A DNA stretch of 64,000 bases, taken from a virus. Its lineage: Duplodnaviria; Caudoviricetes. The stretch covers positions 1-64,000 of the IMG/VR virus record IMGVR_UViG_3300009085_000025, one strand, 5' to 3'. Of this stretch, positions 40,243 through 63,557 are shown piece by piece; within the stretch, counting starts at the first letter, position 1; every line of letters begins with the position of its first letter. The translations under genes were made by a program, and so were the position numbers. The notes below the pieces were generated by a model. The model ran no database searches, had not been told where the DNA came from, and saw only the letters and a list, made by a program, of their open reading frames with translations.

Positions 40243-40298
40243 TAAAATAACTGCTCGTAGTTCATGAAACTTTCATTTCATGAACTACATGCAATCAT
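40243..40298 (-). promoter_or_regulatory. Hairpin cassette (family A variant)
   Basis: 13-bp IR GTAGTTCATGAAA-6-TTTCATGAACTAC with ATAAC and CAATCAT flanks. Confidence 0.75.
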
Positions 40299-40299
40299 A

Positions 40300-40512
40300 T
40301 TATCCGTAAGATGCCGAAACGTATTCGGAACCGAACTCATCCAATGCTGTTCCAACCTGAGAAATATAATCTTGCCAATTCGGAAGATATTTTTCTTTGT
40401 AGTTTCCAACTGCTTCTGCTACAGCTTCAATATTTTCCGCCTCAAAATAACGCACCTCTTCGTCATAGCAATTTCCACTACCTCTACTAAAAGTAACAAT
40501 AAATTTTTCCAT
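40300..40512 (-). CDS. Hypothetical protein, paralogue of 39961..40212
   Basis: EEVRYFEAENIE...YL...LDEF...VSASY. Confidence 0.7.
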   Translation of the reverse strand: MEKFIVTFSRGSGNCYDEEVRYFEAENIEAVAEAVGNYKEKYLPNWQDYISQVGTALDEFGSEYVSASYG

Positions 40513-40514
40513 TT

Positions 40515-41003
40515 TTATTCCCTATCTTCGCATTCACAATCTTCAAAGAAATATCCACAATCTTCGCAGAGTGAATCTTCTTGTTCTTCGTATTCGTCTT
40601 CATCGTCGTTATTGGTGACGATACAATTATTATCAAAATGCAAATTTCCATCGTTTTCCCACACTTCAAATTCTTCCTTGAACGTATGAGTTTGACCACC
40701 ATTCATAGATGTTCCATTGCAAACATCAAGAGGCATAACACCAAGAGAACCGCTATCTACATAATAAACTTCATTGTTGCGGTCAAAATAACTTCCGTCA
40801 CCATGTTTTGTTCCTGCAATAAAACACTTCTTATTTTGATGATAAAAAACTCCGTCATCAAATTTTTCAACATCAACTACCTTACTTGAATTCAATCCAA
40901 AACAACCTGTATCATCAATTAACTTGCTCCAATCATCGTCACTTACGGCATAGCACAAATCTCCAACATAATATGTTCCGGCGGGAAAAATATGACGTGT
41001 CAT
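40515..41003 (-). CDS. Conserved phage protein with acidic/Cys-rich tail
   Basis: AGTYYVGDLCY...HGDGSY.D...VDSGSLG motif. Confidence 0.7.
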   Translation of the reverse strand: MTRHIFPAGTYYVGDLCYAVSDDDWSKLIDDTGCFGLNSSKVVDVEKFDDGVFYHQNKKCFIAGTKHGDGSYFDRNNEVYYVDSGSLGVMPLDVCNGTSMNGGQTHTFKEEFEVWENDGNLHFDNNCIVTNNDDEDEYEEQEDSLCEDCGYFFEDCECEDRE

Positions 41004-41317
41004 TATTTAATCTCCTTGTTTGTTTCATAAGATTTAATATATCGTTGAAGAGAATCTTGATATAAATGCCATCCAAACATGGATGAATCATACATGGCTC
41101 TGGACATTGCTCTTGTAATCTCAAGCCGAGATAAATTCAATTCATCAACTTCATCCTGAGTTAAAAATCTTTCTTCATACAATAACCCAGAAGGTTTTCT
41201 GCGAAAACCAGTTTCCAAAGCCACGACCTTGATGACTTCTCCTTTTTTAGTGAGAGGATTGATTGTTCGATTATCAAGAGCAAAACAATAAGCCGGAATT
41301 ACCACATCGCTAATCAT
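41003..41317 (-). CDS. Hypothetical protein
   Basis: 104 aa, tiles operon. Confidence 0.6.
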   Translation of the reverse strand: MISDVVIPAYCFALDNRTINPLTKKGEVIKVVALETGFRRKPSGLLYEERFLTQDEVDELNLSRLEITRAMSRAMYDSSMFGWHLYQDSLQRYIKSYETNKEIK

Positions 41318-41658
41318 TTTTCATCCTTTTCGAGAGGGAGCACAACAACACGACGAATGTTTCCGTCATCTCCTATATTTCCCCTGATTGCAATACCATC
41401 TTCAATCTCGGATTCGTCATAATATTCACCAAGGTTCAAATCAGTGAATAATGCTTCGTCCGAAAGATAAAACAAGTCAATGGTCACAACGGTTCTTCCA
41501 TTTACTTTTACTGTGACACCATATGGATTTTCTTCAAGTTCAACTTCGCCTTTTGCCTCTGGTTTGTTTACGCTAATTTTCATGTTATTCCTCTTCTCCT
41601 TCTCGAAATTCTTGTAGTCGTTGTTGGACTTCCTCAACGCTGTAATAATCTTTGACAA
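41314..41658 (-). CDS. Hypothetical protein
   Basis: Tiles operon; start uncertain. Confidence 0.55.
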   Translation of the reverse strand: MSKIITALRKSNNDYKNFEKEKRNNMKISVNKPEAKGEVELEENPYGVTVKVNGRTVVTIDLFYLSDEALFTDLNLGEYYDESEIEDGIAIRGNIGDDGNIRRVVVLPLEKDEK

Positions 41659-41747
41659 TCATAGAAAAAATCTCTCTGGCTTCATGTAAAGATAAGTAAT
41701 ACTCAAGAACAGCCATTATTTTATCATCATCATTATTTGATTTTGGA

Positions 41748-41999
41748 TTAAGCATTTTCATCCTCTTTCATTTCAAGTAATTCGTTATAAATATAATCAT
41801 CTAAAACTCCACCAATTGTATTGGCTTGATATACCGCAATGGAGTATTTTCCAAGTGCTTCAAGAGCTTGAAGGGTGGCACTTTCCACACCTTCAAGATA
41901 AGAAATAATCTCGTTATCATCACGACGATGACCAACACCACGATAAAACCAATTCTTGGTATCGAATTTCATTTTTTCTGCGAATTCTTCACTGTTCAT
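41748..41999 (-). CDS. Hypothetical protein
   Basis: 83 aa, AGGAG RBS. Confidence 0.65.
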   Translation of the reverse strand: MNSEEFAEKMKFDTKNWFYRGVGHRRDDNEIISYLEGVESATLQALEALGKYSIAVYQANTIGGVLDDYIYNELLEMKEDENA

Positions 42000-42026
42000 G
42001 GCTGTCTCCTATATAAAATTATGTTA

Positions 42027-42055
42027 ATTGTACCATGGCTCATGTCCCGTGTCAA
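42027..42055 (-). promoter_or_regulatory. Sigma70-type promoter in degenerate family C cassette
   Basis: TTGACA-17 nt-TACAAT with CATGG extended -10. Confidence 0.8.
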
Positions 42056-42137
42056 ACTGGTACATTATTCGGAACGCTTTATGGTACACTACTTGCACAT
42101 TTTGCGGAACACTTATTGCACAATTTTTGCACAATTT

Positions 42138-42812
42138 TTATTTTCTAAGTTCTCCGGTGAGAATATCGGGCAAATTCCGCTTGATATCATATTCTTTCAT
42201 GTAAGGAATATTGACCAAATCATAGTGTGAAGCGTTTCCAAGACCATGAATTAGCGCCTGTTCCTTGCCCAATTTTAGAACCGTGCTACCTTTCTCCCTG
42301 CCGTTGTATGAAACAATAGCATCTTTCATGGGACTTCCATTTATCAAATTCTTGATAGTCGTCTGCTTATAAATCTTGATTTCTAACTGTGAAGAAATAA
42401 ACTTATTGAAGTTGTCAGCCAAACCAGACAAAATCAAAACATTATTCGAGTGCTTGATACGCTGTAACATAACCTTCAATTGCTTCACGCGTTTCCTATC
42501 ATCCAAATCTAGAAACAAGAAGAACTCGTCAATAATGATGATACTATTTTCAATCAACTCTAATTCTTCAACTGAATAAATTTTCTGTTCCCCTAGCCAA
42601 ATCGGTAAAGCATATGAATATAAATTTTCCCTAGTGAAGCCATGATTATTCTTTAGATAATCTATGATGTAATATAAAAGATTGCTCTTTCCCTGAGATA
42701 CATCAGAACATAGACCGATAATCCTAGGTTGAGAAAACAAACTTTCTATTACTGTTGAAATTGGAATCTCCCCCGCCAACTCGCTCTTGCTTTTCAAGAT
42801 TGTTGATGCCAT
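42138..42812 (-). CDS. P-loop NTPase (deviant Walker A), function unknown
   Basis: IIGLCSDVSQGKSNLL and IIIIDEFF; start reset to MASTILK after AGGAG RBS. Confidence 0.7.
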   Translation of the reverse strand: MASTILKSKSELAGEIPISTVIESLFSQPRIIGLCSDVSQGKSNLLYYIIDYLKNNHGFTRENLYSYALPIWLGEQKIYSVEELELIENSIIIIDEFFLFLDLDDRKRVKQLKVMLQRIKHSNNVLILSGLADNFNKFISSQLEIKIYKQTTIKNLINGSPMKDAIVSYNGREKGSTVLKLGKEQALIHGLGNASHYDLVNIPYMKEYDIKRNLPDILTGELRK

Positions 42813-43031
42813 AAAGTTCACTCCTTTTAGGTGACTGTTCAATACGATAGGGGGCATGACACCCCATAAGTAACAAGTGTTTATAGATGATGTTCCTTGG
42901 TATGACCTCCAGTAAGACATAGTTTGACTTTCCCAAAGTAAGCTGGTATAATTCACTACACCACGCCGGACAACGCTTAAGATAATTAAAGTTTTTAAAG
43001 TATATAGTTTTATCACGTAAGACTCATTTGT

Positions 43032-43146
43032 TTGTTATCGAAAAAAGATAATAAACAATAAAAACCAATAAGTTATAAAGATTGACTTATTAGCTTTTAT
43101 TGTTATCTTATCCACTCTTCTTTATAAAGAAATGAATAAGATAACT
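43032..43146. repeat. AT-rich nested inverted-repeat block upstream of the ATPase
   Basis: TTGTTATC direct repeats, AATAAGTTA/TGACTTATT, GTTATCTTAT/ATAAGATAAC and TTCTTTATAAAGAA. Confidence 0.65.
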
Positions 43147-43171
43147 TCTTACATACCTGCTCGTAATCTAC

Positions 43172-43600
43172 CTATGATGCAGGTTGCACATCAACTTGCT
43201 TGTTGATACGCAAATCCAGCATAAGTTGTAATTGTTTCTCAAACTCCGTCCGAGCAAGACGGAGTTTTTTGTTTGGCTCGATGGCGTTCAGGTGCTTTCC
43301 CGTGGTGGTTTTCCAACAATTTTCAGATACGACCAAGCCAAACTCTGGGTCATAAAAAGCAACGATTGTTTGATATGAATAATATAATTCGAAAATACCC
43401 ATGTCGATTTTTATTGCATGAGCGCCATAGTTATCGCTCGAATAATTACCATAAGTTGAAAAGGTGGGTAAAGTTGTCATTTTATTTGTTCTCCTTGTTG
43501 AACATAAGAATATAAATTGAAATATCGAAGGTTTCTTCAAACCAATGCCAAATTTCTTCTCGGTCAGTTCCAATTTCAAAATGAAGATATGGAACCTCAA
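43172..43600 (-). CDS. Conserved phage early protein (start probably MTTLPT)
   Basis: LYYSYQTIVAF...N.W.TTTGKHLNAI motif. Confidence 0.7.
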   Translation of the reverse strand: MRFHIFILKLELTEKKFGIGLKKPSIFQFIFLCSTRRTNKMTTLPTFSTYGNYSSDNYGAHAIKIDMGIFELYYSYQTIVAFYDPEFGLVVSENCWKTTTGKHLNAIEPNKKLRLARTEFEKQLQLMLDLRINKQVDVQPAS

Positions 43601-43769
43601 TCATTCCATCATCATCAACTGGAATATCACCCAACGATTGCCACATATCCGTCACAGAGAAAGATTTTCCACATCCGTTACAAATTCTACCCAACACATC
43701 TTCATCTGGTGTATTATATGCTTCTGGGTATGTTGTTTCACCGCAATAAATACAAAGTACGTTATTCAT
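43482..43769 (-). CDS. Zinc-ribbon hypothetical protein
   Basis: CIYC...CNGC; F.IGT.REEIWHWFEE. Confidence 0.65.
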   Translation of the reverse strand: MNNVLCIYCGETTYPEAYNTPDEDVLGRICNGCGKSFSVTDMWQSLGDIPVDDDGMIEVPYLHFEIGTDREEIWHWFEETFDISIYILMFNKENK

Positions 43770-44028
43770 ATTCTGATACCCATTCTACTTGGCTATAATA
43801 ATGCCCCTGTAAACTTCCTTTATAATTCCACCTAATTTCACGTACAAATTGACAGGAAAGCAATTTCTTTATTTGTCCAATTGTCGAGGATGAGAATTCA
43901 TAAACTTCAAAAGATACTGGCACATCTTCCCATCTTGAATTGTTATTCGAAAATTTTATCTTTACTTCAATAATCTCATTCATAGTGTGGTCTCTCCTTT
44001 GGAAACGGAACGGGTGGAAATCTTTCAA
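43762..44028 (-). CDS. Hypothetical protein (start probably MNEII)
   Basis: Tiles operon. Confidence 0.55.
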   Translation of the reverse strand: MKDFHPFRFQRRDHTMNEIIEVKIKFSNNNSRWEDVPVSFEVYEFSSSTIGQIKKLLSCQFVREIRWNYKGSLQGHYYSQVEWVSEYE

Positions 44029-44278
44029 GTTTTACTTCGTAAATTCCTTCTGACAACACCGAATAAATATCACGGCGACCTTTATTCCACTCCTTGACAA
44101 TCATTTCTACTTTATCAAAATATCTTCGAGCAAAACCTTTGTTGATACAAACTTTATTCAATTCTGATTCAATCGGTTCGCCGTAGGTATACCACCAACC
44201 CCCTTCATGTGCTCCACCGTAAGCTCTATCAATTAGATATATAGTTACATAATACATGATTACTCCACTTCTACCCAT
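43976..44278 (-). CDS. Conserved phage early protein
   Basis: Y.IDRAYGG.HEGGWWY motif. Confidence 0.7.
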   Translation of the reverse strand: MGRSGVIMYYVTIYLIDRAYGGAHEGGWWYTYGEPIESELNKVCINKGFARRYFDKVEMIVKEWNKGRRDIYSVLSEGIYEVKLERFPPVPFPKERPHYE

Positions 44279-44478
44279 TCGGGCGACATGAGTTCAAATC
44301 GATTTGGAATATATGGAATTGCGACACATCCTTGAATTTCATCGTTCTGCAATCTGTAACTTTCATTGGTCAAAACGAAAGTTTCTAAAAATCCACTACG
44401 TTCAAGCCATACACATTCTTTATAGTCCCAATGGGGGAGTCTGAACTTCCTCTTTTCTTCAATAACCATCTTCAACAT
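44260..44478 (-). CDS. Hypothetical protein
   Basis: 72 aa, tiles operon. Confidence 0.5.
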   Translation of the reverse strand: MLKMVIEEKRKFRLPHWDYKECVWLERSGFLETFVLTNESYRLQNDEIQGCVAIPYIPNRFELMSPEWVEVE

Positions 44479-44510
44479 TTCATAAAACTTGTATCTTTTT
44501 TGATATGCTA

Positions 44511-44708
44511 TTATTTTACTCCATGATAATATTCGGTTTCACAAATACGTTCAACCAAATCATAAATTCTAACATCTGTAATGTGTTGTTTTTCACGCCA
44601 ATCAAAAGAACTCCAAAAAATATCTAGGGCGTCTCCAACATCTTCACCCTTCCAGATTACATCGTATTCTTTATTCATAAATTTATATTCAATAACAAAT
44701 TTTTTCAT
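44511..44708 (-). CDS. Hypothetical protein
   Basis: 65 aa, AGGAG RBS after cassette. Confidence 0.65.
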   Translation of the reverse strand: MKKFVIEYKFMNKEYDVIWKGEDVGDALDIFWSSFDWREKQHITDVRIYDLVERICETEYYHGVK

Positions 44709-44730
44709 GGTTGCTCCTTATTGTTTTTAT

Positions 44731-44779
44731 AGAATAACTCAAGAACACACATAAGATATCTTATGTGTGCATATTCAAT
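44731..44779 (-). promoter_or_regulatory. Hairpin cassette family A
   Basis: 24-bp perfect palindrome CACACATAAGAT|ATCTTATGTGTG; flanks TTGAATAT and TTGAGTTATT on - strand. Confidence 0.8.
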
Positions 44780-45012
44780 TATTCTACGACTTCGTTTTCT
44801 AATTCACCAAATTCCCCCCAGTAATTTTCATTCGGAGTAAACTCATATTGTTCTTCCTCTAAAAAATATGCTCCGCGCTGTACACCGATAAATTCAACGT
44901 TTGCTCCAAAGAACTCTCCAGCAATTCTTGCAAACTCATCTGTGTCACATTCCGTAAGGAATTTAGTCATAGCATCGAGTAATCTTTCTTCATTCAGAAT
45001 GATTGTCTTCAT
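44779..45012 (-). CDS. Hypothetical acidic protein
   Basis: 77 aa, AGGA RBS. Confidence 0.65.
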   Translation of the reverse strand: MKTIILNEERLLDAMTKFLTECDTDEFARIAGEFFGANVEFIGVQRGAYFLEEEQYEFTPNENYWGEFGELENEVVE

Positions 45013-45015
45013 TTT

Positions 45016-45327
45016 TTATTCCTCTACTTCGTTGATATCTGTGATTTTTGTGTTTATAATCATTCCTTCGTATGGAATAACTTCTTCACATGAGATAAAA
45101 ACAACGCAACAATCAAATAAGTGTAGCCAATAATTTCCCACGACTTCAGGATAATTTTCCGACCACATATAATCAATAACCTTTGACGAAGAACCATAAT
45201 CCGGATTCAAAACGTAGGTGCATTTCCATAATTTCAACATGTTATTTTTTTTCCTTGTTTTTCTTTTGCATAGCAATCCACTCATTATTTTCCACTGGTT
45301 TCTCTGGTAAATCCCACAAACCACCAA
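45016..45327 (-). CDS. Hypothetical protein (start probably MLKLWK)
   Basis: Tiles operon. Confidence 0.55.
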   Translation of the reverse strand: MVVCGIYQRNQWKIMSGLLCKRKTRKKNNMLKLWKCTYVLNPDYGSSSKVIDYMWSENYPEVVGNYWLHLFDCCVVFISCEEVIPYEGMIINTKITDINEVEE

Positions 45328-45622
45328 ACAACCAATCTGAAATCATCTCAGAATATCGAGATTCAATATAAATTCCCCAATGTCCAACATAAATTGTGTA
45401 AGCCTCAGATGTGTTGTACTTGATATTACGTTTCTTTAGTTCTTCTTTGATTTCTTTCTGGCTATAACGACCTCCGTATGATTTGCATTCAATTGAAAAA
45501 CCATCCATCCAAACACCCTTGATTAATCTGTCGCCTTTATTTACTGTCATATTATTTCTCCTTAATCTTCCATGAACCCAAGTATGTAATTTCATATTCC
45601 AAATCACCAAGCAAACTTTCAT
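45242..45622 (-). CDS. Hypothetical protein (start probably MTVNKG)
   Basis: AGGAG RBS before MTVNKG. Confidence 0.6.
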   Translation of the reverse strand: MKVCLVIWNMKLHTWVHGRLRRNNMTVNKGDRLIKGVWMDGFSIECKSYGGRYSQKEIKEELKKRNIKYNTSEAYTIYVGHWGIYIESRYSEMISDWLFGGLWDLPEKPVENNEWIAMQKKNKEKK

Positions 45623-45733
45623 CGAATTCAGATGTCTTGAATGTTTGCCACGCCGACCAATGATTATTGTTCCAAAAACGAATCTTCAGATATTTGACAC
45701 TCATTTTTTCATCCTTTTTGAAAATATATTTTT

Positions 45734-45785
45734 TATATAACCATGAGTATATTCTACCACAAAATGGTAGAATATACATAGGCTT
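45734..45785 (-). promoter_or_regulatory. Hairpin cassette family C
   Basis: 13-bp IR GTATATTCTACCA-5-TGGTAGAATATAC; TATG and CTCATGG flanks on - strand. Confidence 0.8.
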
Positions 45786-45798
45786 ATAAAACTAATTA

Positions 45799-46134
45799 TT
45801 ATTGTGGGTTACAAAAATCACAATTTTCAGGTCGTTCACCGTGCTTACAAAACGCAAAATCGTCACTTCTGTCGTAATCATATTCTTCTAATTTAATTAC
45901 GCGACCTTCGCATTCATTAGTCGTAATTTCGTCTTGAACACCATCCACAAAACCTTGTGCATAAACCTTATCCAATATTACATATAAATCATGAGTAACT
46001 TCTGTAAAACCATCGGCTCCAATCCTTGGATATTGAAACGGAGTAAAATATGGCGCATTCAAAGGAGAACCTTCTCTATCTGTATGTATAAAAGTTTCTC
46101 CGGTCAAAGTATTTAGAAAATATCTAGTTTTCAT
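45799..46134 (-). CDS. Hypothetical protein
   Basis: 111 aa, C-terminal C.H....C..C. Confidence 0.6.
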   Translation of the reverse strand: MKTRYFLNTLTGETFIHTDREGSPLNAPYFTPFQYPRIGADGFTEVTHDLYVILDKVYAQGFVDGVQDEITTNECEGRVIKLEEYDYDRSDDFAFCKHGERPENCDFCNPQ

Positions 46135-46514
46135 TATTCATTCACCTCAAGTTGAGATTCGTAAACATCCCACACATTGTCGTCTTGGTCTACGACAGAA
46201 ATCCACTTTCCACGGAATGAAACAATTGTTCCTCCAAATTGAAAAAATTCATCATTAGGCTGTGGAGTTACAATAACACACATTCCAACGGTAAACTTAT
46301 TGTCTGTCTTAACATCATATGAAACACCACCTTCATCGAAAGTAAATGTCACCGATTTTGCTCCTGATTTTTGTGCCTGACGAACAATATCAGCAACTTT
46401 TGCGGCGGGCTTCAACTCATCCACCAGTTTTCTTACTGCGCTTTGATTTGAAGTATTTTTTACCATGTTACAAAGTTCAACCCAAGTTGGTTCCACATCA
46501 ATAGTAATAGGCAT
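46134..46514 (-). CDS. Hypothetical two-domain protein (C-terminal KOW/SH3-like)
   Basis: AGGAG RBS; FTVGMCV...GTIV...VVDQDDNVWDV. Confidence 0.65.
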   Translation of the reverse strand: MPITIDVEPTWVELCNMVKNTSNQSAVRKLVDELKPAAKVADIVRQAQKSGAKSVTFTFDEGGVSYDVKTDNKFTVGMCVIVTPQPNDEFFQFGGTIVSFRGKWISVVDQDDNVWDVYESQLEVNE

Positions 46515-47272: not shown

Positions 47273-47299
47273 ATTTTCTCCTTATGAATTTATCAAATA

Positions 47300-47346
47300 A
47301 TTGTACCATGAGTATTCCGAAGTTGTCAAGCTTCGGAATACATAAG
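47300..47346 (-). promoter_or_regulatory. Hairpin-promoter cassette family C, -35 in loop
   Basis: 11-bp IR GTATTCCGAAG/CTTCGGAATAC around TTGACA; TTGACA-18-TACAAT. Confidence 0.85.
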
Positions 47347-47350
47347 TTAA

Positions 47351-48675: not shown

Positions 48676-48698
48676 GATTTTCTCCTTATAAATATATT

Positions 48699-48750
48699 AG
48701 AATAACTCAAAACTGTAAATAAGAAATAATCTTATTTACAGATGTTCAAT
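48699..48750 (-). promoter_or_regulatory. Hairpin cassette family A
   Basis: 12-bp IR CTGTAAATAAGA-5-TCTTATTTACAG; TTGAACAT and TTGAGTTATT flanks. Confidence 0.8.
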
Positions 48751-48759
48751 TATCCTACA

Positions 48760-49941: not shown

Positions 49942-49967
49942 TCTCCTTATAAAATATAATAGTTTCT

Positions 49968-50018
49968 AGTATAACTCAAATATTCCCACGAGTCAAATCT
50001 CATGGGAATATGTTCAAT
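49968..50018 (-). promoter_or_regulatory. Hairpin-promoter cassette family A
   Basis: 13-bp IR with one G-U pair on - strand; TTGACT-17-TATACT. Confidence 0.85.
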
Positions 50019-50022
50019 CATA

Positions 50023-50719: not shown

Positions 50720-50740
50720 GTTTTTCTCCTTATGATAATA

Positions 50741-50787
50741 TAATAACTCAAAACTACATATGAAGTTTTCATATGTAGATGTTCAAT
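50741..50787 (-). promoter_or_regulatory. Hairpin cassette family A
   Basis: 11-bp IR CTACATATGAA-3-TTCATATGTAG; TTGAACAT and TTGAGTTATT flanks. Confidence 0.8.
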
Positions 50788-50789
50788 CA

Positions 50790-51981: not shown

Positions 51982-52004
51982 AACTTCTCCTTATAGATTT
52001 TGAC

Positions 52005-52053
52005 TAATAAAAATCCATGAAACTAATCTTTCATGGATTTTTATTAATCCCCC
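52005..52053 (-). promoter_or_regulatory. Hairpin cassette family B (terminator-like)
   Basis: 18-bp IR TAATAAAAATCCATGAAA-6-TTTCATGGATTTTTATTA, followed by ATCCCCC. Confidence 0.8.
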
Positions 52054-52063
52054 TTGATTTTAT

Positions 52064-53562: not shown

Positions 53563-53582
53563 AATTTCTCCTTGGTTATTTT

Positions 53583-53627
53583 ATAATTCCATGATTGCCA
53601 CAGAATTTTTTCTGTGGCAAATAAGAT
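53583..53627 (-). promoter_or_regulatory. Hairpin cassette family C
   Basis: 11-bp IR TTGCCACAGAA-4-TTCTGTGGCAA; CTTAT and TCATGG flanks. Confidence 0.8.
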
Positions 53628-53634
53628 TATAAAA

Positions 53635-54156: not shown

Positions 54157-54510
54157 TTACCATGAAATCCAGAAGATTAATTCCGTAACATCCTCTGTTG
54201 TATCTTTATAATTATAAAATTCATGCTCAATATCAAACACCATACAAATCAAATCAAAAAGTTCCAAATTGCCATTGTCTTTAATTTGATTCCTTCGAAT
54301 TTTACAATAACTATCATTGCGAAATTCCACATCGTTATTGCTGAACATTTCTAGGATGTCTGGATTTTGCCACAAATTATTATTATTCAAGTATCGTTCA
54401 ACATTATCCCATTCCAAAATCTTTTTTGTTTCAAAACAACTAGCTAAATCTCGGTCTGTTCTATACAGTGACGATTGCATTTTTTCTCCTTTACCAATCT
54501 GTTGTTTCAA
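54157..54510 (-). CDS. Hypothetical protein (start probably MQSSLY)
   Basis: AGGAG RBS before MQSSLY. Confidence 0.6.
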   Translation of the reverse strand: MKQQIGKGEKMQSSLYRTDRDLASCFETKKILEWDNVERYLNNNNLWQNPDILEMFSNNDVEFRNDSYCKIRRNQIKDNGNLELFDLICMVFDIEHEFYNYKDTTEDVTELIFWISW

Positions 54511-54811: not shown

Positions 54812-54831
54812 ATTTTCTCCTTATCAAAATA

Positions 54832-54876
54832 ATATTACCATGAGTGCCTACGATTGTCAAATCGTAGGCACATAAG
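54832..54876 (-). promoter_or_regulatory. Hairpin-promoter cassette family C, loop is exactly TTGACA
   Basis: GTGCCTACGAT-TTGACA-ATCGTAGGCAC; TTGACA-17-TAATAT with TG. Confidence 0.9.
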
Positions 54877-54885
54877 CATATTATT

Positions 54886-55975: not shown

Positions 55976-56256
55976 TTTTCTCCTTGAAAATATTTTATAT
56001 TTTCTTTATTTTCCCTTACAAGTTTCAACAATTTAATCATCGGATAATCCCAAGCGGGGAATTCATATGTAGGATTTATAAATTTTTCCCAAGCCTCCGT
56101 TGATATTCTTTCCCATCCCGTAGTGCATAATCCCACCTTGGGAATTTCCGCATCATCTTCTGTCGCTATCAATTTTCCCGTAGTTTGATTTACAAATTTT
56201 AGCATTTTTTCCTTTCTTTCTATAATAATATTACCATAACTATTCATGAAATTCAA
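55963..56256 (-). CDS. Hypothetical protein (start probably MLKFVN)
   Basis: ORF-track start overlaps cassette; AAGG RBS before MLKFVN. Confidence 0.55.
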   Translation of the reverse strand: MNFMNSYGNIIIERKEKMLKFVNQTTGKLIATEDDAEIPKVGLCTTGWERISTEAWEKFINPTYEFPAWDYPMIKLLKLVRENKENIKYFQGEKWIK

Positions 56257-56277
56257 CTTTCATGAATAGATTAAGCA
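56228..56277 (-). promoter_or_regulatory. Hairpin-promoter cassette family C
   Basis: 12-bp IR CTATTCATGAAA-6-TTTCATGAATAG; TTGAAT-17-TAATAT with TG. Confidence 0.85.
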
Positions 56278-56289
56278 TATTATCTTTTA

Positions 56290-56475: not shown

Positions 56476-56476
56476 C

Positions 56477-57446: not shown

Positions 57447-57660
57447 GGCTTTTTGGAATATAATATCCTTCTTCTACGGATTCAAAAAACCTCCAAATTT
57501 CTGCATCTGGATTTTTTCTTGGACAATCGCCAAAATGTTCAATCGGATTCCACCAATATTCAACAACATGGCATGTGCAATCGTTTTCTAATTCCCATCT
57601 CATTCTTTCTTCTGGAAGCATTTTTTCTAGCTTCTTAGTGAGAACAAAATAATCATCCAT
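57424..57660 (-). CDS. Hypothetical protein
   Basis: AGGAG RBS after cassette. Confidence 0.6.
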   Translation of the reverse strand: MDDYFVLTKKLEKMLPEERMRWELENDCTCHVVEYWWNPIEHFGDCPRKNPDAEIWRFFESVEEGYYIPKSHGETDEM

Positions 57661-57687
57661 TTATATCTCCTTGAATTTTTATTAGAC

Positions 57688-57736
57688 TTATTACAATTCA
57701 TGAAAGATAAATTTCATGAATTCTAATAAATCCCCC
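57688..57736 (-). promoter_or_regulatory. Hairpin cassette family B
   Basis: 11-bp IR AATTCATGAAA-6-TTTCATGAATT extended by TTATTA/TAATAA; ATCCCCC flank. Confidence 0.8.
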
Positions 57737-57745
57737 TAATTTTAT

Positions 57746-57967
57746 TTATCCTAAATTCTTTAGAATAATAACACTTGAACCAAATAAATCGGTCAAGTAT
57801 TCAATCGCCAATTGTTTTTCATCGAAGGTTTTTCTATAACCAGCGCCATAATCGGCAAATGATATTTGCCACTTGCCTAGCGGATTTTTTCCGATGAGAA
57901 ATTTTACCGATTCGACTTCTACCAAAACATCGTTTTCAATCATATCTAAAAAGATATCTCTTTCCAT
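57746..57967 (-). CDS. Hypothetical protein
   Basis: AGGAG RBS. Confidence 0.6.
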   Translation of the reverse strand: MERDIFLDMIENDVLVEVESVKFLIGKNPLGKWQISFADYGAGYRKTFDEKQLAIEYLTDLFGSSVIILKNLG

Positions 57968-57976
57968 ATTTTCTCC

Positions 57977-58183
57977 TTATTCTTGAAAATTTTGCATGGC
58001 TTCAGCAATTGCCTTGGATAATCCCGGTAATTCACTAGGAAGAATTGCCAGCCGTTTATTTTGAACGGTATCCAAAATATAAATTCCGATATGTGGAACT
58101 ACTATTTCCACACTTATTTGCTTGGATACTTTTATGAGAATACTTTCTTCTTTCTCAAGAATTTCTTCGGGTACAATTTTCAT
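57977..58183 (-). CDS. Hypothetical protein
   Basis: AGGAG RBS after cassette. Confidence 0.6.
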   Translation of the reverse strand: MKIVPEEILEKEESILIKVSKQISVEIVVPHIGIYILDTVQNKRLAILPSELPGLSKAIAEAMQNFQE

Positions 58184-58202
58184 ATTTTCTCCTTATAAAA
58201 AT

Positions 58203-58248
58203 AATAACTAAAGATTACCCATGAAAATTTCATGGGTAAATATTCAAC
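58203..58248 (-). promoter_or_regulatory. Hairpin cassette family A
   Basis: 11-bp IR TTACCCATGAA-3-TTCATGGGTAA; TTGAATAT and TAGTTATT flanks. Confidence 0.8.
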
Positions 58249-58257
58249 CATTATTTC

Positions 58258-59124
58258 CTATAATTCTAATCTCATATGGCAACCACAAACATCGAATCTT
58301 TGGTCATATGATTCCTGACGATATCCATCTGAATTTCCATGGGCATCATTATATTGCACACAAATATTGCAAGTTTTCCAGTTGAGAACTCTTTGAACTA
58401 ATTCATAAATCTCATCTTCTTTTGGGGTTTCATCGTTTGAATTACACTCTCGTACAAACCAATAAACCATTTGTGAAATTTCAGCATCAGTAAAATCTCT
58501 GTCATCAAATTCTTCGCCATTGTTTCTAATGTAATATTCAATTTCATCTTTTACTAATTCTTCCTGTGCCTCCATTTCACGACGATAATAATCTTCATCA
58601 TTGTACAATCCATAATCATCCAGTTTTTCTTTTACTTCATCCATTGTTTCCAGTAATTCAAAATCTGTTTCGTGAACCATCATCAATTTAAACCAACCAC
58701 AAGCCCAGTGACCAAATTCTGCAATTAAAATTCCCTTATTTGTATCTTCATCAAAACTCTCAGGATAATCCGCAAGAATACAATCCCAATTTGATTGTTC
58801 AAAATCATCAGAATCCCGCGTACAAGAAATGACAATATAAAAATCTGACATATCTTCGCCACCATAATCAGATTTTGGCATCTTCCATTTACTTAGAAAC
58901 TTCGGAGTGTATAAAATTTCCGTATATGTTCCTTTATAAACTGGAAAACCTTCGCCATCATCATCCCAACCATCTTGATTTACCCAGAAAACAATATCGG
59001 AATCTTTATACAAATTTGTGGCTGGAACAACTTCAATTATATCATTTTTCCAATAACGTTGTGGGAGACTTTTATAATCTCCAGCCATTCCATGTCGAAT
59101 AGTTTCATTCAATTTAATTTTCAT
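58258..59124 (-). CDS. Acidic multi-domain phage early protein
   Basis: EQSNWD...GHWACGW...L..Y.L.NDED motif; AGGAG RBS. Confidence 0.7.
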   Translation of the reverse strand: MKIKLNETIRHGMAGDYKSLPQRYWKNDIIEVVPATNLYKDSDIVFWVNQDGWDDDGEGFPVYKGTYTEILYTPKFLSKWKMPKSDYGGEDMSDFYIVISCTRDSDDFEQSNWDCILADYPESFDEDTNKGILIAEFGHWACGWFKLMMVHETDFELLETMDEVKEKLDDYGLYNDEDYYRREMEAQEELVKDEIEYYIRNNGEEFDDRDFTDAEISQMVYWFVRECNSNDETPKEDEIYELVQRVLNWKTCNICVQYNDAHGNSDGYRQESYDQRFDVCGCHMRLEL

Positions 59125-59142
59125 TTTTCTCCTTGTTATGTT

Positions 59143-59418
59143 TTACCATATTTCCAGTTCAATTTCGTAAGTTGAGCCGGAATCGCAGGTTGGACATCCA
59201 TCGCTTTTATATCCATGGAAAAATTCAATATTTTCTGTTTCAAAAAATTCGGAAAGCAATTTCAATTGACTAAATTTGCATTCCAAATATGAATAACCTT
59301 TTGCGATAGTTATAGCTACTTTTCCGGTTTTTTTTAGGGATACTTCTACTTCAATATTATCGTTATCCCAAATTTCATGAACCCTTTTTACTATTTTTTG
59401 TGCTGGATATCTTTTCAT
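59143..59418 (-). CDS. Hypothetical protein
   Basis: GCPTCDSGS; AGGAG RBS. Confidence 0.65.
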   Translation of the reverse strand: MKRYPAQKIVKRVHEIWDNDNIEVEVSLKKTGKVAITIAKGYSYLECKFSQLKLLSEFFETENIEFFHGYKSDGCPTCDSGSTYEIELEIW

Positions 59419-59437
59419 AAATTTCTCCTTTTTTATT

Positions 59438-59466
59438 ATTCTAACAAAAAATCAAAAAACTGTCAA
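59438..59466 (-). promoter_or_regulatory. Sigma70-type promoter with CTGTCAA/TTGACAG inverted repeat
   Basis: TTGACA-17-TAGAAT; inverted second TTGACA at 59480-59485. Confidence 0.8.
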
Positions 59467-59499
59467 ATAAAAATTCCACTTGACAGATGTTTTGACTTC

Positions 59500-59691
59500 T
59501 TATTTCAAAATTCCAGAATAACTATAATCATCAGGAATAAGAAGGAAGCTATAAAAAACAGGATGCCATCCTTCTTTTTCTAAAAGTTTTTCAATATCAT
59601 CATTTTTAGTATTTTTTTCTACAAAATACCACGTGTCAAAAACAAAAATCTCTCCGTTTTCTTCTGTATGAAAGACGATTACTTTATCCAT
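59500..59691 (-). CDS. Hypothetical protein
   Basis: GAGG RBS. Confidence 0.5.
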   Translation of the reverse strand: MDKVIVFHTEENGEIFVFDTWYFVEKNTKNDDIEKLLEKEGWHPVFYSFLLIPDDYSYSGILK

Positions 59692-59847
59692 TTTTTTTAT
59701 TTAAACCTCACTACAACTTTTCCATTTGTCACCAAGGTTCCCCACAAATCGCTCCAGTTTCCAAGCACATTATTTTTGGCACAATATGTAAAAAATTCCC
59801 CTTGATTTGCAAAATCATATGAATATAGAGTAGTCATATTTTTCTCC

Positions 59848-60366
59848 TTATCCAGAAAATCCCCAATGATTCGGGTCAGCTAAAATCGCCTTATGACCAA
59901 AATAATCAGCATATGATTCAAAACCATACATACGATTTTCATATGGTTCATTTTCATAAATCAACATCAAATCATAAAAAGATTTCTTGTCATTTTTTGC
60001 AAACTTCATCGTTCCACTTCGTAATCCATCGAATGTTGTGTGAATTTTTGTATAGAAACTTAGATATTTTATCCAGTTTCCATCCATGTGATGTACAAGA
60101 TACATGGCTGATTCTTCACCATTTAATTTCACCCACATTGACCAACTTTTTCCCTCATATTCCCCCCAAATTTTAGGCGAAATTCCTAAATATTCTGCAC
60201 GTTCTTCGAGCGTCATTTTCTTATAATCCATATATATTCTCCTGTGAAATATGATTATGACTAATAAAAACCACCTAAAATCTTTTAGGTGGTTTTTATT
60301 AATCCCCCTGTATTTCCTTTTTTTATTGACAACGAATAATTGAAACTTCAATTCGAGCGTGAGCAT
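59848..60366 (-). CDS. Hypothetical protein (true start probably MDYKKM near 60231)
   Basis: ORF-track start runs through a cassette; AGGAG RBS before MDYKKM. Confidence 0.6.
   Translation of the reverse strand: MLTLELKFQLFVVNKKRKYRGINKNHLKDFRWFLLVIIIFHRRIYMDYKKMTLEERAEYLGISPKIWGEYEGKSWSMWVKLNGEESAMYLVHHMDGNWIKYLSFYTKIHTTFDGLRSGTMKFAKNDKKSFYDLMLIYENEPYENRMYGFESYADYFGHKAILADPNHWGFSG
60262..60308 (-). promoter_or_regulatory. Hairpin cassette family B
   Basis: 19-bp IR TAATAAAAACCACCTAAAA-2-TTTTAGGTGGTTTTTATTA; ATCCCCC flank. Confidence 0.8.
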
Positions 60367-60511
60367 CCTTATATCTTACAATTCCACCATTTTCCCAAAC
60401 GGAAATCATTGCCGATTGAATATTTGGCTTAAAATCATTGAGTTTCAATTCGAATGGATTTTTATTTCTACAATCCATGCATAAATTTTCTGGATAAACA
60501 TATAGTTCCAT
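60323..60511 (-). CDS. Hypothetical protein
   Basis: Tiles operon. Confidence 0.55.
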   Translation of the reverse strand: MELYVYPENLCMDCRNKNPFELKLNDFKPNIQSAMISVWENGGIVRYKDAHARIEVSIIRCQ

Positions 60512-60513
60512 TT

Positions 60514-60915
60514 TTATACCATCTTCTCTTCATTCTCAAACAAGTCAATTTCATTATAAATCATGTTGCGAATTGCGCGAATTTCGTGTGATGTTAATTT
60601 TACAACCTTTTCCAGCCTTTCAATCAACATTTCCACCACAATTCTTGGTGAAAAATAACAGCCAGTAGAAGTATGTTTTACTTCATCATAACATCCACAA
60701 AATCCAGTGGGTGAGTACGCACATTTACCGCCATCTTCTTTTTCACGAAAAGTATGAACCGCGACATCTGATAAATAAACAGAATACGGATAAAGTACCG
60801 CTTGAGTCTTGATTACTTTTCCGCTTCGCGCAAGAATTATTTCAAAATATTTATTCTTGTTTTGTTCACTCGGATATGAGCCATATCGAATAAAATTTGT
60901 GTCCATTTTTAGCAA
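60514..60915 (-). CDS. Hypothetical protein (start probably MDTNFI)
   Basis: Tiles operon. Confidence 0.6.
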   Translation of the reverse strand: MLKMDTNFIRYGSYPSEQNKNKYFEIILARSGKVIKTQAVLYPYSVYLSDVAVHTFREKEDGGKCAYSPTGFCGCYDEVKHTSTGCYFSPRIVVEMLIERLEKVVKLTSHEIRAIRNMIYNEIDLFENEEKMV

Positions 60916-61136
60916 GCCTCCAATACAATTTCAAAACGAAATCCACGAAACTTCACGAAAGTTTTTCCGTCATCACATCTTTCTATTTCTACCATCTTTC
61001 TTCCCGTACTATCAACATCTTTGCTGTATTCACCGTTATAAATTTTCCCCAGTGTAAGAAAATCTTCCATTTTACTATCATCAATACATTTGAATTTCAT
61101 TTTATTTGTCCTCTTCTTGTTTGAGTTTCCATCCAT
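60909..61136 (-). CDS. Hypothetical protein (start probably MKFKCI)
   Basis: LT.GK.Y motif; GAGG RBS. Confidence 0.6.
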   Translation of the reverse strand: MDGNSNKKRTNKMKFKCIDDSKMEDFLTLGKIYNGEYSKDVDSTGRKMVEIERCDDGKTFVKFRGFRFEIVLEAC

Positions 61137-61154
61137 GAGATTGTTCCAATTTTA

Positions 61155-61203
61155 GATTAATAAAAGCCACCCATAAAAAATGAGTAGCTTTGATTAATCC
61201 CCC
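61155..61203 (-). promoter_or_regulatory. Hairpin cassette family B (degenerate, G-U compensated on - strand)
   Basis: GATTAATCAAAGCTACTCAT/ATGGGTGGCTTTTATTAATC on - strand; ATCCCCC flank. Confidence 0.75.
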
Positions 61204-61212
61204 TGATTTTTA

Positions 61213-61464
61213 TTAGAATGTATTTAGATAATTTGAAAAAATATAGAACAAAGTAAGCGCCGTTGTCAAAAATGCGATTTGCTTTTTTACTGAGTGTAGC
61301 AATCCTTTTGACGGTTCTTTTTCGTGCGTAGAAAACGGCATGGAACCTTTTTCATTTCCATAAATATCATGACCACCGGGAGTTCTTTTCCATTTCAGCC
61401 CCCTATCTTCTGCAACTCCCCTTAAATCCTTCCATGATTTTGCGTTATCCAAATTCTTTTTCAT
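61213..61464 (-). CDS. HicA-like mRNA interferase fold protein with hydrophobic C-terminus
   Basis: GLKWKRTPGGHDIY...MPFSTHEKEPSKGLLHSVKKQ matches the HicA G(S/G)H...PxH...GLL.SI pattern. Confidence 0.7.
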   Translation of the reverse strand: MKKNLDNAKSWKDLRGVAEDRGLKWKRTPGGHDIYGNEKGSMPFSTHEKEPSKGLLHSVKKQIAFLTTALTLFYIFSNYLNTF

Positions 61465-61643
61465 GATTTTACTTCCTCAACTTTCAGAGCTAAAGTAAAA
61501 TCCTTGCCATACTTAAGACCTTGCGCCTGAAGATTTTCCAGCAGAAAATCAAAAAGCGCATCTGATTTCTTTTCTGACAAAGTAAGAGAAATTTCAATCG
61601 TGCGAAGTTTCTTTTCTACGGTTTTCTTGTTGGATTTTTTCAC
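61461..61643 (-). CDS. Hypothetical protein
   Basis: GTG start, AGGAG RBS. Confidence 0.6.
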   Translation of the reverse strand: MKKSNKKTVEKKLRTIEISLTLSEKKSDALFDFLLENLQAQGLKYGKDFTLALKVEEVKS

Positions 61644-61679
61644 AATTTTTCTCCTTGTTTTTAGTTTGTTATTTTTCTA

Positions 61680-62084
61680 TCACATTCTACTAATAACGTA
61701 ATCAATTACTGCTTTTGTACGTTGGAACATTCCTAGAATTTCCACGTATCTATCACGCTTATTCCTGAGTTTTTCCACCTGATAAAAATTGAACCACAAT
61801 TCTTTTTTTACTTCAATTTGAATCATGGTATCAGATATTGCTCCACGCAGGATAGAAATTGAAATTTCCAAATCGTCAAGGTATTTCTTGTAATCCGTTC
61901 CATATTGCAGGCTCGTGTCAACGTGTGCAATCAAAAGCCCCAAGTTTGACATAGAATGATATGATTTTGACAAATTCCATCCTGCGTCATCCTTGTATTT
62001 ATTTTTCAATTGCACGGTGTCAAGATATAAACTCATCAATTTTTCATTTTTTACATCGTGAATTGCACCATCGATTTTTTGCAT
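61680..62084 (-). CDS. Hypothetical helical protein
   Basis: AGGAG RBS after cassette. Confidence 0.65.
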   Translation of the reverse strand: MQKIDGAIHDVKNEKLMSLYLDTVQLKNKYKDDAGWNLSKSYHSMSNLGLLIAHVDTSLQYGTDYKKYLDDLEISISILRGAISDTMIQIEVKKELWFNFYQVEKLRNKRDRYVEILGMFQRTKAVIDYVISRM

Positions 62085-62110
62085 TTTATTATTCTCCTGT
62101 TTTTTGAAAT

Positions 62111-62160
62111 AAAATAACTCATATCTCTTGATGAAATCAACATTTCATCAAGAGAGTGAA
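62111..62160 (-). promoter_or_regulatory. Hairpin cassette family A variant
   Basis: 14-bp IR TCTCTTGATGAAAT-4-ATTTCATCAAGAGA; TGAGTTATT flank; TTGATT-18-TATTTT. Confidence 0.8.
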
Positions 62161-62174
62161 AGCCATTTTACTTT

Positions 62175-62492
62175 TTAGATATCGATTTGCCCCTGATTTT
62201 CGTCCACAAATTTTGCCATATAATTTTTATGGTTCTTCTCACCACGAGATAGATTGTGTTTGTGGTTGAAATTCTTCTTGGAAGCCTTGTGTTTTCCACC
62301 AACAATTTTCTTGATTCTTCGAAGAATATTCTTTTTTCCAAGCTGGCGCACGTCAATATATTCACGAAAATGCCCCTTCTTAATTTTCGGGTCAACAATC
62401 ACAACTTTTGGTTCGACGGTTTCACCAGTTTCGGTATTGCCAGAAATAACTTCTTCAAATTCATCGGTAACAATTTCGTTCTCAGTATTCAT
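62175..62492 (-). CDS. Hypothetical protein, acidic N-half and basic C-half
   Basis: AGGAG RBS. Confidence 0.65.
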   Translation of the reverse strand: MNTENEIVTDEFEEVISGNTETGETVEPKVVIVDPKIKKGHFREYIDVRQLGKKNILRRIKKIVGGKHKASKKNFNHKHNLSRGEKNHKNYMAKFVDENQGQIDI

Positions 62493-62866
62493 TATTATTT
62501 TCTCCTTGATAAATTTTTACTTATTCAACAGCAGGAAATAAACACCCGCTAATGACCAACAATTCTTGAATTTTCCGCTTGAAATAGCAGAATGTTTTTC
62601 ACGCAAAAATGATGTTTTACTTGTGAATGATTTTAGCATATTTCTCCTTATAAAGTATAGAAAAGTCCAGATTCCAAAGCCGTGATTGCATTTCTCATAT
62701 TTTCTGTCAAACAATCACTATTCATTTTCATTGTTGAAATTTCCATTGGATTTTCAAAACACCATTCAACACATTCTTCAAAAAATAATTGTTTCATTTT
62801 ATTTTCCTTCCAAATATTCAATCAATTCATCTTCACCAGCCGGATTGATAATCAAATCAGAGTCGT

Positions 62867-63106
62867 TCATTTTGCACTCTCCTTCAAATATTCTTTGAGT
62901 TTATTTAGGTTTTTATATAGAACATATAAAGACGGAAAATTCAAGCTTTGTCTAAAGTTTTGAGAACAAAAGTTTTCTCTTATATGTTTAAATTGAGAAA
63001 GAGAAACGTGTGCCCAACCATCGACGCCATCTGTTTTATCATTCCATGGCGCATATGATATAAAAATTTCACCAGTTTCCACATTTACAAAACGTTTGAA
63101 ATACAT
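62867..63106 (-). CDS. Hypothetical protein
   Basis: AGGAG RBS. Confidence 0.6.
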   Translation of the reverse strand: MYFKRFVNVETGEIFISYAPWNDKTDGVDGWAHVSLSQFKHIRENFCSQNFRQSLNFPSLYVLYKNLNKLKEYLKESAK

Positions 63107-63118
63107 TTTTATCTCTCC

Positions 63119-63490
63119 TTAGTGACCGTAATTACAGCCAATTTTTGCCATTTGATTTCCGATGAAAATATTTTCATCCATAAATCCACAACAACCTTGT
63201 TCTTTTTGTTCAAGGTAATCATAAAATTTATTTGAGAATTCATCATATTCTTCATCGGAAATTTCACGAAATTCATCTGCGCCAAACCAAAATGGTTGCC
63301 AACAAAATCTCAAATTATCCATGCAATCATCTTCATGCAAAATATCGCGATACCCTTCTGCTTCTTCAATTGTGTTGAAGTGTTTATAAAATTCCCCTTG
63401 AAATTCTACATCTGGAAGAATTCTGAAACAATTTGGGCATGTTCCATTTACTTCACAATCTTCTCCATCATGACAAATTACGCAATCCAT
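63119..63490 (-). CDS. Acidic Cys-rich phage early protein
   Basis: C.DN.RF....GCCG..D...IGCNYGH motif; AGGAG RBS. Confidence 0.7.
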   Translation of the reverse strand: MDCVICHDGEDCEVNGTCPNCFRILPDVEFQGEFYKHFNTIEEAEGYRDILHEDDCMDNLRFCWQPFWFGADEFREISDEEYDEFSNKFYDYLEQKEQGCCGFMDENIFIGNQMAKIGCNYGH

Positions 63491-63509
63491 AATATTGCTC
63501 CTTTTTTAT

Positions 63510-63557
63510 ATTATAATTCACTCAAGCCAATTTGTCAAATTTTCACCTGACAAATTG
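63510..63557 (-). promoter_or_regulatory. Hairpin-promoter cassette, -35 in stem
   Basis: 11-bp IR CCAATTTGTCA-9-TGACAAATTGG; TTGACA-17-TATAAT consensus. Confidence 0.88.

Follow-up and report, generated by a model that had tools for sequence, protein, structure and literature searches.

Genomic context

The sequence considered here comprises the initial 64 kb of a viral contig of 81,231 bp (IMG/VR record IMGVR_UViG_3300009085_000025), the completeness of which is estimated at about 58%. This stretch, hereafter the window, contains a set of intergenic stem-loop elements, or cassettes, for which a preliminary description listed 19 sites between positions 40,243 and 63,557. The minus strand carries genes from approximately 10 to 77 kb of the contig, and about 90 small genes are located between 39 and 70.5 kb, that is, in the early region to which the elements belong. 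No Pfam or PHROG function could be assigned to any of the ten largest early proteins tested.

The contig encodes a PolIII-alpha polymerase that is 37–40% identical to its counterparts from Geobacillus virus E3 (40% amino acid identity), Bacillus vB_BanS phages, and Lactococcus phage PMBT69, and also a primase-helicase and an AAA_24 (Sak4-like) protein (gene at 23776–24753). On sequence grounds, it appears to belong to a PolIII-alpha phage of the Firmicutes type, unrelated to the T4-type phages.

Array of intergenic stem-loops

The early region contains a repeated, multi-family set of intergenic stem-loop cassettes within a block of small genes, as had been proposed. All 19 listed sites are intergenic, lie on the minus strand, follow a stop codon, and precede an AGGAG-type ribosome-binding site (RBS); the intergenic gaps at these coordinates are 66–112 nt long. 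When the region from 39 to 72 kb was scanned for inverted repeats of at least 11 bp, with one mismatch allowed, 21 hairpins were found, compared to 1.2 ± 0.9 in 30 dinucleotide shuffles. All 21 fall into non-coding DNA, which constitutes 17% of this region. The hairpin density, 0.64 per kb, may be compared with 0.07–0.16 per kb in the nearest sequenced phages, PMBT69 and E3, where hairpins of the same type number 9 in 128 kb and 22 in 140 kb, respectively.

Repeats of 11–20 bp with at most one mismatch are present at 14 sites. The preliminary description had counted 17 sites with repeats of 11–19 bp, and the remaining ones are shorter or contain G·U pairs, e.g., 10 perfect pairs at 44731 and 12 pairs, two of them G·U, at 61155. 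The repeat at 63510 consists of 11 perfect pairs around a 10-nt loop. Of the two sites said to have weaker repeats, 59438 indeed forms 12 pairs including three G·U, whereas 42027 has no convincing hairpin.

While the sites themselves stand, the array extends beyond both the interval proposed for it and the window, to about 69.6 kb of the contig. Additional elements were found at 64414, 65479 (family B), 67450 and 68270 (a fourth family, D), 69130, and 69507, so that approximately 25 elements are present in total. They divide the region into modules of 2–5 genes; the modular layout is as described previously, with the range of 1–5 genes corrected accordingly.

Covariance models R1 and R2, constructed for families B and C, respectively, each detect exactly five copies of their family in the 81-kb contig, at 67–80 bits on the minus strand and 26–46 bits on the plus strand. 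No Rfam family matches the interval from 39 to 64 kb at E ≤ 0.1. Apart from the cassettes, which yield seven blastn pairs with 77–96% identity over 27–81 nt, the 33 kb analyzed contain no repeated DNA.

Two-tier anatomy

Each hairpin element is built of two tiers spanning 19–30 bp: a lower stem characteristic of the family and, separated from it by a small internal loop, an upper stem that is hypervariable and closed by a loop of 3 to 10 nt. The three flank families A, B, and C, specific to the minus strand, were recovered as initially defined. The conservation of these segments is real, but they are not mere flanks, since they pair with each other to form the lower stem. Thus, ATAATTGAA pairs with TTGAGTTAT, partly via G·U, in family A; GATTAATAAAAA pairs with TTTTTATTAGTC in family B; and AATAATATGCT pairs with GGT.AATATTATT in family C. 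Family D, found beyond the window, has the form AAATTCAAATC-[stem]-GCTTTGAACGTAAA.

This shape superficially resembles that of folded attC sites in an integron-type array, in which the lower "R box" stem is conserved, the spacer is left unpaired, and the top varies, and the flanks do contain AAC and GTT. The details are nevertheless difficult to reconcile with this explanation, which we regard as close to refuted. The flanks do not fit the RYYYAAC/GTTRRRY consensus and pair in another register through G·U, the stems are near-perfect and lack extrahelical bases, and the modules contain 2–5 genes and include promoters. No tyrosine recombinase is encoded in the contig (no match to PF00589), and the GC-rich attC region at 73.2–73.4 kb is unlike the AT-rich elements.

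The upper stems mostly differ from copy to copy, as was claimed. The exception is a core, YYCATGAAA-N6-TTTCATGRR, that is shared by six or seven copies across families A, B, and C (40257–40288, 52002–52049, 56238–56271, 57688–57729, 58215–58239, and 62124–62155 in the window, and 1402–1449 in the metagenome contig L293 discussed below). Possible reasons are shared ancestry of the copies, the swapping of cassette halves, or a function of the core in recognition.

Another recurrent motif is AGGGGGA, a box resembling a Shine–Dalgarno (SD) sequence. It occurs 11 times on the minus strand of the contig and never on the plus strand, and ten of the occurrences are non-coding. Nine copies belong to the early region and are situated 5–15 nt past a stop codon (52054, 57737, 60309, and 61204 on the minus strand of the window, and 65548, 68197, 68866, 69211, and 69609 in contig coordinates), five of them directly before a family B hairpin; the copy at 68197 has no hairpin at all. 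At 32874, and also in the distant relative G003, the same box is a working RBS. Mini open reading frames following the box are not consistent from copy to copy.

Selection on RNA pairing

The claim that structure is selected in the stem is borne out by compensatory changes that maintain pairing in both stems of families A, B, and C. The alignments include copies from two short metagenome contigs, L293 and L294. In family B (six copies, one of them from L293), 97.6% of cells in 21 pairs are paired and 12 pairs are changed on both sides, a level reached in none of 500 shuffles; slid controls are 37–51% paired. In family C, including the L294 copy, the lower helix is 95% paired with 6 compensatory pairs, and the upper helix is 100% paired with 8. 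The lower helix of family A, again including a copy from L294, is 100% paired, and its upper helix has 8 compensatory pairs. Across families, slid controls are 35–51% paired.

The pairing is also strand-specific. Several positions are kept as U·G or G·U, where the other strand would have A·C mismatches; overall, G·U accounts for 75 of 599 pairs in the sense folds and 17 of 488 in the antisense ones. The sense folding energy is lower than the antisense one by 6.3 kcal/mol on average, compared to 2.9 kcal/mol in coding controls (p = 1.4e-4). The conserved G·U pairs and the stronger sense fold indicate that the selected structure is an RNA hairpin in early transcripts rather than a DNA operator or cruciform. 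Families A, B, C, and D would then be lineages of one unit kept by selection on RNA pairing.

Palindromes acting at the DNA level, either as operators for a phage shut-off repressor or as cruciforms gating an enclosed promoter, might be suggested by the promoters nested within imperfect palindromes and by the six or seven copies of TTCATGAAA-N6-TTTCATGAA. We consider this explanation very improbable. Most stems have no sequence in common, the majority of the elements contain no promoter that could be controlled, and the loop length varies between 3 and 10 nt; in addition, many of the conserved pairs are G·U, to which A·C mismatches would correspond in the complementary strand, and folding of the antisense RNA is far less stable.

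Predicted promoters

Promoters were predicted from sigma-A-type -35 and -10 boxes. The term "hairpin-promoter cassette" used in the preliminary description fits approximately 10 of the 25 elements, which have a credible promoter of this type, while families B, D, and most of A consist of a hairpin only. Strong promoters (at least 10.5 of about 13 points) are predicted at 42027, 47300, 48699, 49968, 54832, 59438, and 63510, and moderate ones at 56228 and 50741. No credible promoter was found in families B and D, nor at 40243, 44731, 58203, 62111, 69130, and 69507. The promoters are spaced at approximately 4–5 kb, with three or four promoter-less hairpins between them.

Five of the strong -35/-10 pairs (47300, 49968, 54832, 59438, and 63510) have a nested geometry. 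The apical loop contains or adjoins the -35 box, the spacer of 17–18 nt is made up of the 3' arm and the internal loop, and the -10 box coincides with the 3' strand of the lower stem, pairing at the RNA level with an upstream complement of the ATTATA type. Two promoters of PMBT69, at 3605–3631 and 66029–66059, likewise have a TG-extended -10 box inside an inverted repeat of 12–13 bp (ACTATTATGnTATAATAGT); hence, such nesting is not unique to the phage studied here.

Among the family C elements, all of them on the minus strand as are the others listed below, 47300 (47273–47350) has TTGACA in the apical loop, a spacer of 18 nt composed of the 3' arm and CTCATGG, and a -10 box TACAAT. At 54832 (54812–54885), TTGACA in the loop is followed by a 17-nt spacer and TAATAT, the -10 box pairing with the upstream AATAATAT. 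Element 56228 (56206–56289) combines the C flanks with an upper stem containing the TTCATGAAA core and a moderate predicted promoter, TTGAAT-17-TAATAT with TG. The two-tier element 45734 (45705–45798), with an upper stem of 13–14 bp and a lower stem TTTTATAAGCC/GGTTATATAAAA, has a promoter that is weak at best, and 53583 (53563–53634), also two-tier and lacking a U-tract, has a weak promoter only.

CATGG also precedes TATAAT at hairpin-free promoters, namely at the promoter-only junction 39412 (39412–39477; TTGACA-18-TATAAT with CATGG) and at 42027. The 3' motif of family C, CTCATGG, thus corresponds to the -16, or extended -10, region. Element 42027 (42000–42137) is a strong predicted promoter, TTGACA-17-TACAAT with CATGG at -16, and has no real hairpin. 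Upstream of it, on the minus strand of 42000–42137, there are short direct repeats (TGTGCAA three times, GTTCCG twice, and GTACCA twice) that look like binding sites for a regulator.

In family A, 44731 (44709–44778), TTGAATAT-[10-bp stem]-TTCTTGAGTTAT, is a hairpin only, and 58203 (58184–58257), located directly after gene X, pairs over 27 bp in total with six G·U and has no promoter. The two-tier stem of 48699 (48676–48759; 12 + 11 bp) is followed by TTTTGAG and has a possible promoter TTTACA-17-TATATT; the hairpin of 50741 (50720–50789) is followed by TTTTGAG as well, and its promoter boxes, TTCATA-18-TATTAT, are weak to moderate. At 49968 (49942–50022), a family A hairpin is combined with a predicted promoter that has TTGACT in the loop, a 17-nt spacer, and TATACT in the lower stem. 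Two further elements are A-like, and neither has a credible promoter. These are 40243 (40213–40300), a two-tier hairpin with an upper stem of 13–15 bp containing the TTCATGAAA core and a lower stem ATGATTGC/GCAGTTAT, and 62111 (62085–62174), with upper and lower stems of 14 bp each and the 3' motif TATGAGTTAT.

The family B elements in the window have no promoter. At 52005 (51982–52063), AGGGGGATTAAT is followed by a continuous 21-bp stem with A-tract and T-tract arms, resembling a bidirectional terminator. Element 57688 (57661–57745) has a stem with the TTCATGAAA core and a homologue in L293; 60262 (60232–60322) has a continuous 21-bp stem; and the stem of 61155 (61101–61212) contains two G·U.

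The two remaining elements of the window carry strong predicted promoters. At 59438 (59419–59499), a 12-bp hairpin with G·U pairs is followed by a T6 run, as in a terminator, and its 3' arm contains the TTGACA of a promoter with a 17-nt spacer, TAGAAT, and an extended TG. Element 63510 (63491–63586) is a 30-bp composite palindrome around a perfect promoter, TTGACA-17-TATAAT, the -35 box of which belongs to the 3' arm and the -10 box to the lower stem.

Two other candidate promoter arrangements were considered. The flanks of family A could be read as a split promoter (TTGAAC ... TATTCT); this was rejected, the spacing being about 40 nt, or about 10 nt with the hairpin extruded. The 5' TAAAAT of family B as a -10 box, which would place the hairpin in a 5' leader, was judged unlikely: neither a -35 box nor a TG accompanies it, and 60262 lacks the motif.

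Possible transcript ends and processing

U-tracts follow the stem in a part of the elements: in family B (T5-type, inside the extended stem), at 59438 (T6), and in most of family A (4–5 T in 8). In this respect, these elements are similar to intrinsic bidirectional terminators, with a stem and then a U-run at operon ends, and family B additionally has an A-run before the stem, so that by its sequence it looks like a plain two-way terminator. The differences from intrinsic terminators are that C and D have no U-tract, that the stems are far longer than needed, and that the lower stems, like the internal loops, have been conserved from copy to copy and from phage to phage.

The best explanation, which we hold to be probable, is that the elements are hairpins that mark transcript ends, attenuate transcription, or direct processing, some of them being fused to early promoters. 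The two-tier hairpin would form in the sense transcript at the end of each early block of 2–5 genes, where its most likely role would be to terminate or attenuate the upstream message or to mark its 3' end, and to protect this message. In approximately 40% of elements, a host sigma-A-type promoter would be written into the same 60 nt, and transcription would restart about 20 nt before the next start codon. As a side effect, which we infer from their repetition, the cassettes may act as short homology patches for exchange.

Several observations weigh against this explanation. Firstly, neither stem is followed by a U-tract in families C and D and at 63510 and 64414, and these are not canonical intrinsic terminators. 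Secondly, there is no promoter behind the hairpin-only elements (B, D, and most of A), where efficient termination would silence the downstream genes. Thirdly, stems of 21–30 bp exceed what a terminator needs. Finally, neither the shared CATGAAA core of the upper stems nor the AGGGGGA motif in front of family B is accounted for. The presence of promoter-less hairpins between promoters 4–5 kb apart suggests that the hairpins let much transcription pass or act post-transcriptionally, and within the explanation preferred here attenuation or processing seems as likely as full termination.

An overlapping explanation is that the elements are sites of the host ribonuclease III (RNase III) or of a phage endoribonuclease, at which long early transcripts are cut into module-sized mRNAs, each with a protective stem. 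The composite stems, which at 19–30 bp correspond to about two turns of a helix, combine small internal loops that are conserved with upper stems that vary freely, and they have the length and the two-tier shape of RNase III substrates. Also in favor of such cleavage are the specificity of the structure for the sense RNA, the absence of U-tracts from families C and D, and the approximately 15 hairpin-only elements that transcription must traverse, since the promoters are 4–5 kb apart. Precedents exist in early transcripts. The early operon of phage T7 has five RNase III sites. Bs-RNase III sites in the early mRNA of Bacillus phage SP82 are mentioned in the passages of PMC4838370 that cite Panganiban and Whiteley (1983) and Mitra and Bechhofer (1994). 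The T7 and SP82 sites and the elements described here are alike in being intercistronic two-part stems of about 20 bp or more with an internal loop, situated in early transcripts, with several related copies per genome; they differ in the U-tracts or promoters carried by many of the copies described here and in the copy number, approximately 25 vs. 3–5. Family B, with the full anatomy of an ordinary bidirectional terminator, fits this explanation poorly, no RNase III gene was found in the 81-kb contig, so that the host enzyme would be required, and the enzyme has no sequence consensus to compare. We regard cleavage as possible, but less likely than the explanation preferred above.

A broader variant is a lineage-wide RNA "punctuation code," in which the family-specific lower stems and internal loops would determine how RNase III or a phage factor cuts, attenuates, or stabilizes each early module. 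Transcription would be restarted by the nested promoters, and portable units would move modules between related phages. The AGGGGGA box and the CAUGAAA core would then be recognition sites for factors. We consider this variant unlikely as a whole.

Cassettes in relatives and possible gene exchange

No close relatives were found among GenBank phages by megablast and blastn, and searches with the primase-helicase and gene X in IMG/VR, from which almost identical records may have been absent, returned only relatives with at most 38% amino acid identity. For two other early proteins, tblastn against GenBank phages produced distant matches in Gram-negative phages only, or none. Two loose motif scans of IMG/VR gave single chance matches only, and a stricter two-part pattern of family B gave 14 matches in IMG/VR, none of them with a hairpin. 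Models R1 and R2 had no match in three distant IMG/VR relatives, Lactococcus phage PMBT69, and Geobacillus virus E3.

Gene X homologues with 45–66% amino acid identity to that of the phage studied here are present in the two short metagenome contigs L293 and L294. In L293 (1,722 nt; X 66% identical), the order is B cassette, a, b, X, B cassette, c, d. The second B cassette has 75% nucleotide identity to that at 57688, with three compensatory double changes, and gene c is a 59% homologue of the window gene at 57746–57967; the corresponding order in the phage is X, A cassette, g68, c, B cassette. In L294 (1,795 nt; X 46% identical), the order is A cassette, p, q, X', r, C cassette, s. Here the C cassette has 78% nucleotide identity to 56228, with one compensatory change of A-U to C-G in the lower stem, in the -10 region, and gene s is a 34% homologue of the gene at 54157–54480, which is not adjacent to a cassette in the phage. 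Cassettes in both contigs are conserved about as well as coding DNA, beside different genes. The recurrence of A, B, and C, combined with different stems, in L293 and L294 implies that all three families are older than these phages.

The changed neighbors of the cassettes are compatible, as far as gene order can tell, with module exchange of the kind ascribed to promoter-early stem-loops (PeSLs), and are not a demonstration of it. PeSLs were described in the T4-type phages RB49/phi1, PST/T4, and nt-1/KVP40 (PMC2839356, PMC4122927), with crossovers mapped between the SD sequence and the -10 box; T4 needs less than 50 bp of homology (PMC2839356). The analogy drawn in the preliminary description holds in part for the layout, which in PeSLs is a stop codon, a stem-loop, a promoter of the sigma70/sigmaA type, an SD sequence, and ATG; this order is shared, but a credible promoter is present in approximately 10 of the 25 elements, and there the stem-loop overlaps with it. 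Like PeSLs, the cassettes are composite intergenic units, repeated many times in a block of small, mostly orphan genes; their stem-loop sequences are more variable than those of the promoters; PeSL-like variants built on a different class of promoter are also known (PmSL); and the repeated sequence, here four families with the identities given above, is usable as homology. The differences are substantial as well. The phage is unrelated and of the Firmicutes type, the array has four discrete families defined by the lower stem, and the majority of copies lack a promoter. Where there is one, the hairpin encloses it, whereas that of PeSLs lies upstream of the promoter, and the stems are AT-rich, 19–30 bp long, with RNA-specific G·U, whereas PeSL stems are short, with a G-run and a C-run.

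One could ask whether the cassettes are PeSL-type mobile regulatory linkers whose main role is to provide recombination points, possibly via mini-circles, for gaining, losing, and swapping modules. As the only repeated DNA in the region, they can act as homology patches, and the phage encodes the Sak4-like AAA_24 protein. The same families stand beside other genes in relatives, X being followed by a B cassette and c in L293 and the C cassette of L294 lying between an unrelated gene and the homologue of the 54157 gene; the occurrence of one upper-stem core with A, B, and C flanks fits mosaic cassettes.

In a comparison restricted to L293 and L294, which at 45–66% amino acid identity are too diverged for a clean test, some breakpoints coincide with cassettes and others with plain junctions. 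Synteny is also broken between b and X, q and X, X and r, and c and d, where at least one genome has only an RBS spacer, and at the junction of b and X neither genome has a cassette. Two or three of six breakpoints are situated at cassettes, which is not above expectation, given that about one junction in three to four, or roughly 26%, carries a cassette. The suggestion that genes are duplicated at cassettes found no support: the early genes include no paralogues, and there is no sign of duplication. Furthermore, the longest exact matches between cassettes are 12–19 nt, no longer than the common RBS string ATAAGGAGAAAATATG, and compensatory changes reflect selection on folding and not on sequence homology. 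Recombination as the main role of the elements is, in our opinion, doubtful.

Comparison with the SPO1 early region and significance

The host-takeover module of SPO1 reportedly consists of 12 short operons, each with its own early promoter. The likeness lies in dense early promoters and terminators that split many genes of less than 100 codons into small operons in a Gram-positive phage. The SPO1 elements are not known to have been described as two-tier hairpin families with nested promoters. By analogy, the array would work like PeSLs or like the early operon organization of SPO1, and in structure it appears to be a variant of its own: multi-family, two-tier, with the promoter nested in the hairpin, mostly promoter-less, and with G·U pairs at the RNA level.

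The array may extend the PeSL idea, that of compact cassettes organizing plastic early regions of large phages, to a phage of the Firmicutes type. Its design is distinct in that a host promoter would be kept in register with a long RNA hairpin within a single unit of 60 nt. Both the RNA-level selection and the abundance of copies that lack a promoter suggest processing or attenuation of early transcripts at the elements. The conserved families, represented by models R1 and R2, provide handles for finding relatives and studying cassette-mediated gene exchange.

Other features of the contig

An isolated C-like hairpin, CTTATG-GGGTTAC...-CATGG, is located at 16205–16270 on the minus strand, in the replication region and outside the range initially claimed for the array. 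It has no aligned -10 box and was not reported by model R2 at E ≤ 1.

Gene X (58258–59124, minus strand) encodes an early protein of 288 amino acids with a conserved core at residues ~70–213 that includes an FGHWACGW motif. The core is present in hundreds of unrelated viral and metagenome contigs, yet neither Pfam nor PHROG has a family for it; a 60% homologue of gene X (P0003) is encoded on a 72.9-kb Logan contig.

Near the right end of the contig, a gene at 80299–81231 on the plus strand, cut off by the contig end, matches phrog_8308, a family of 847 amino acids with no assigned function. Two long non-coding stretches, delimited by rough gene calls, are situated at the upstream end of the early array, at 70566–71333 (768 nt) and 72009–73000 (992 nt) of the contig. 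They could be a control region or an origin, and the former contains several hairpins of 10–16 bp, at 70634, 70674, 71079, 71116, and 71275.

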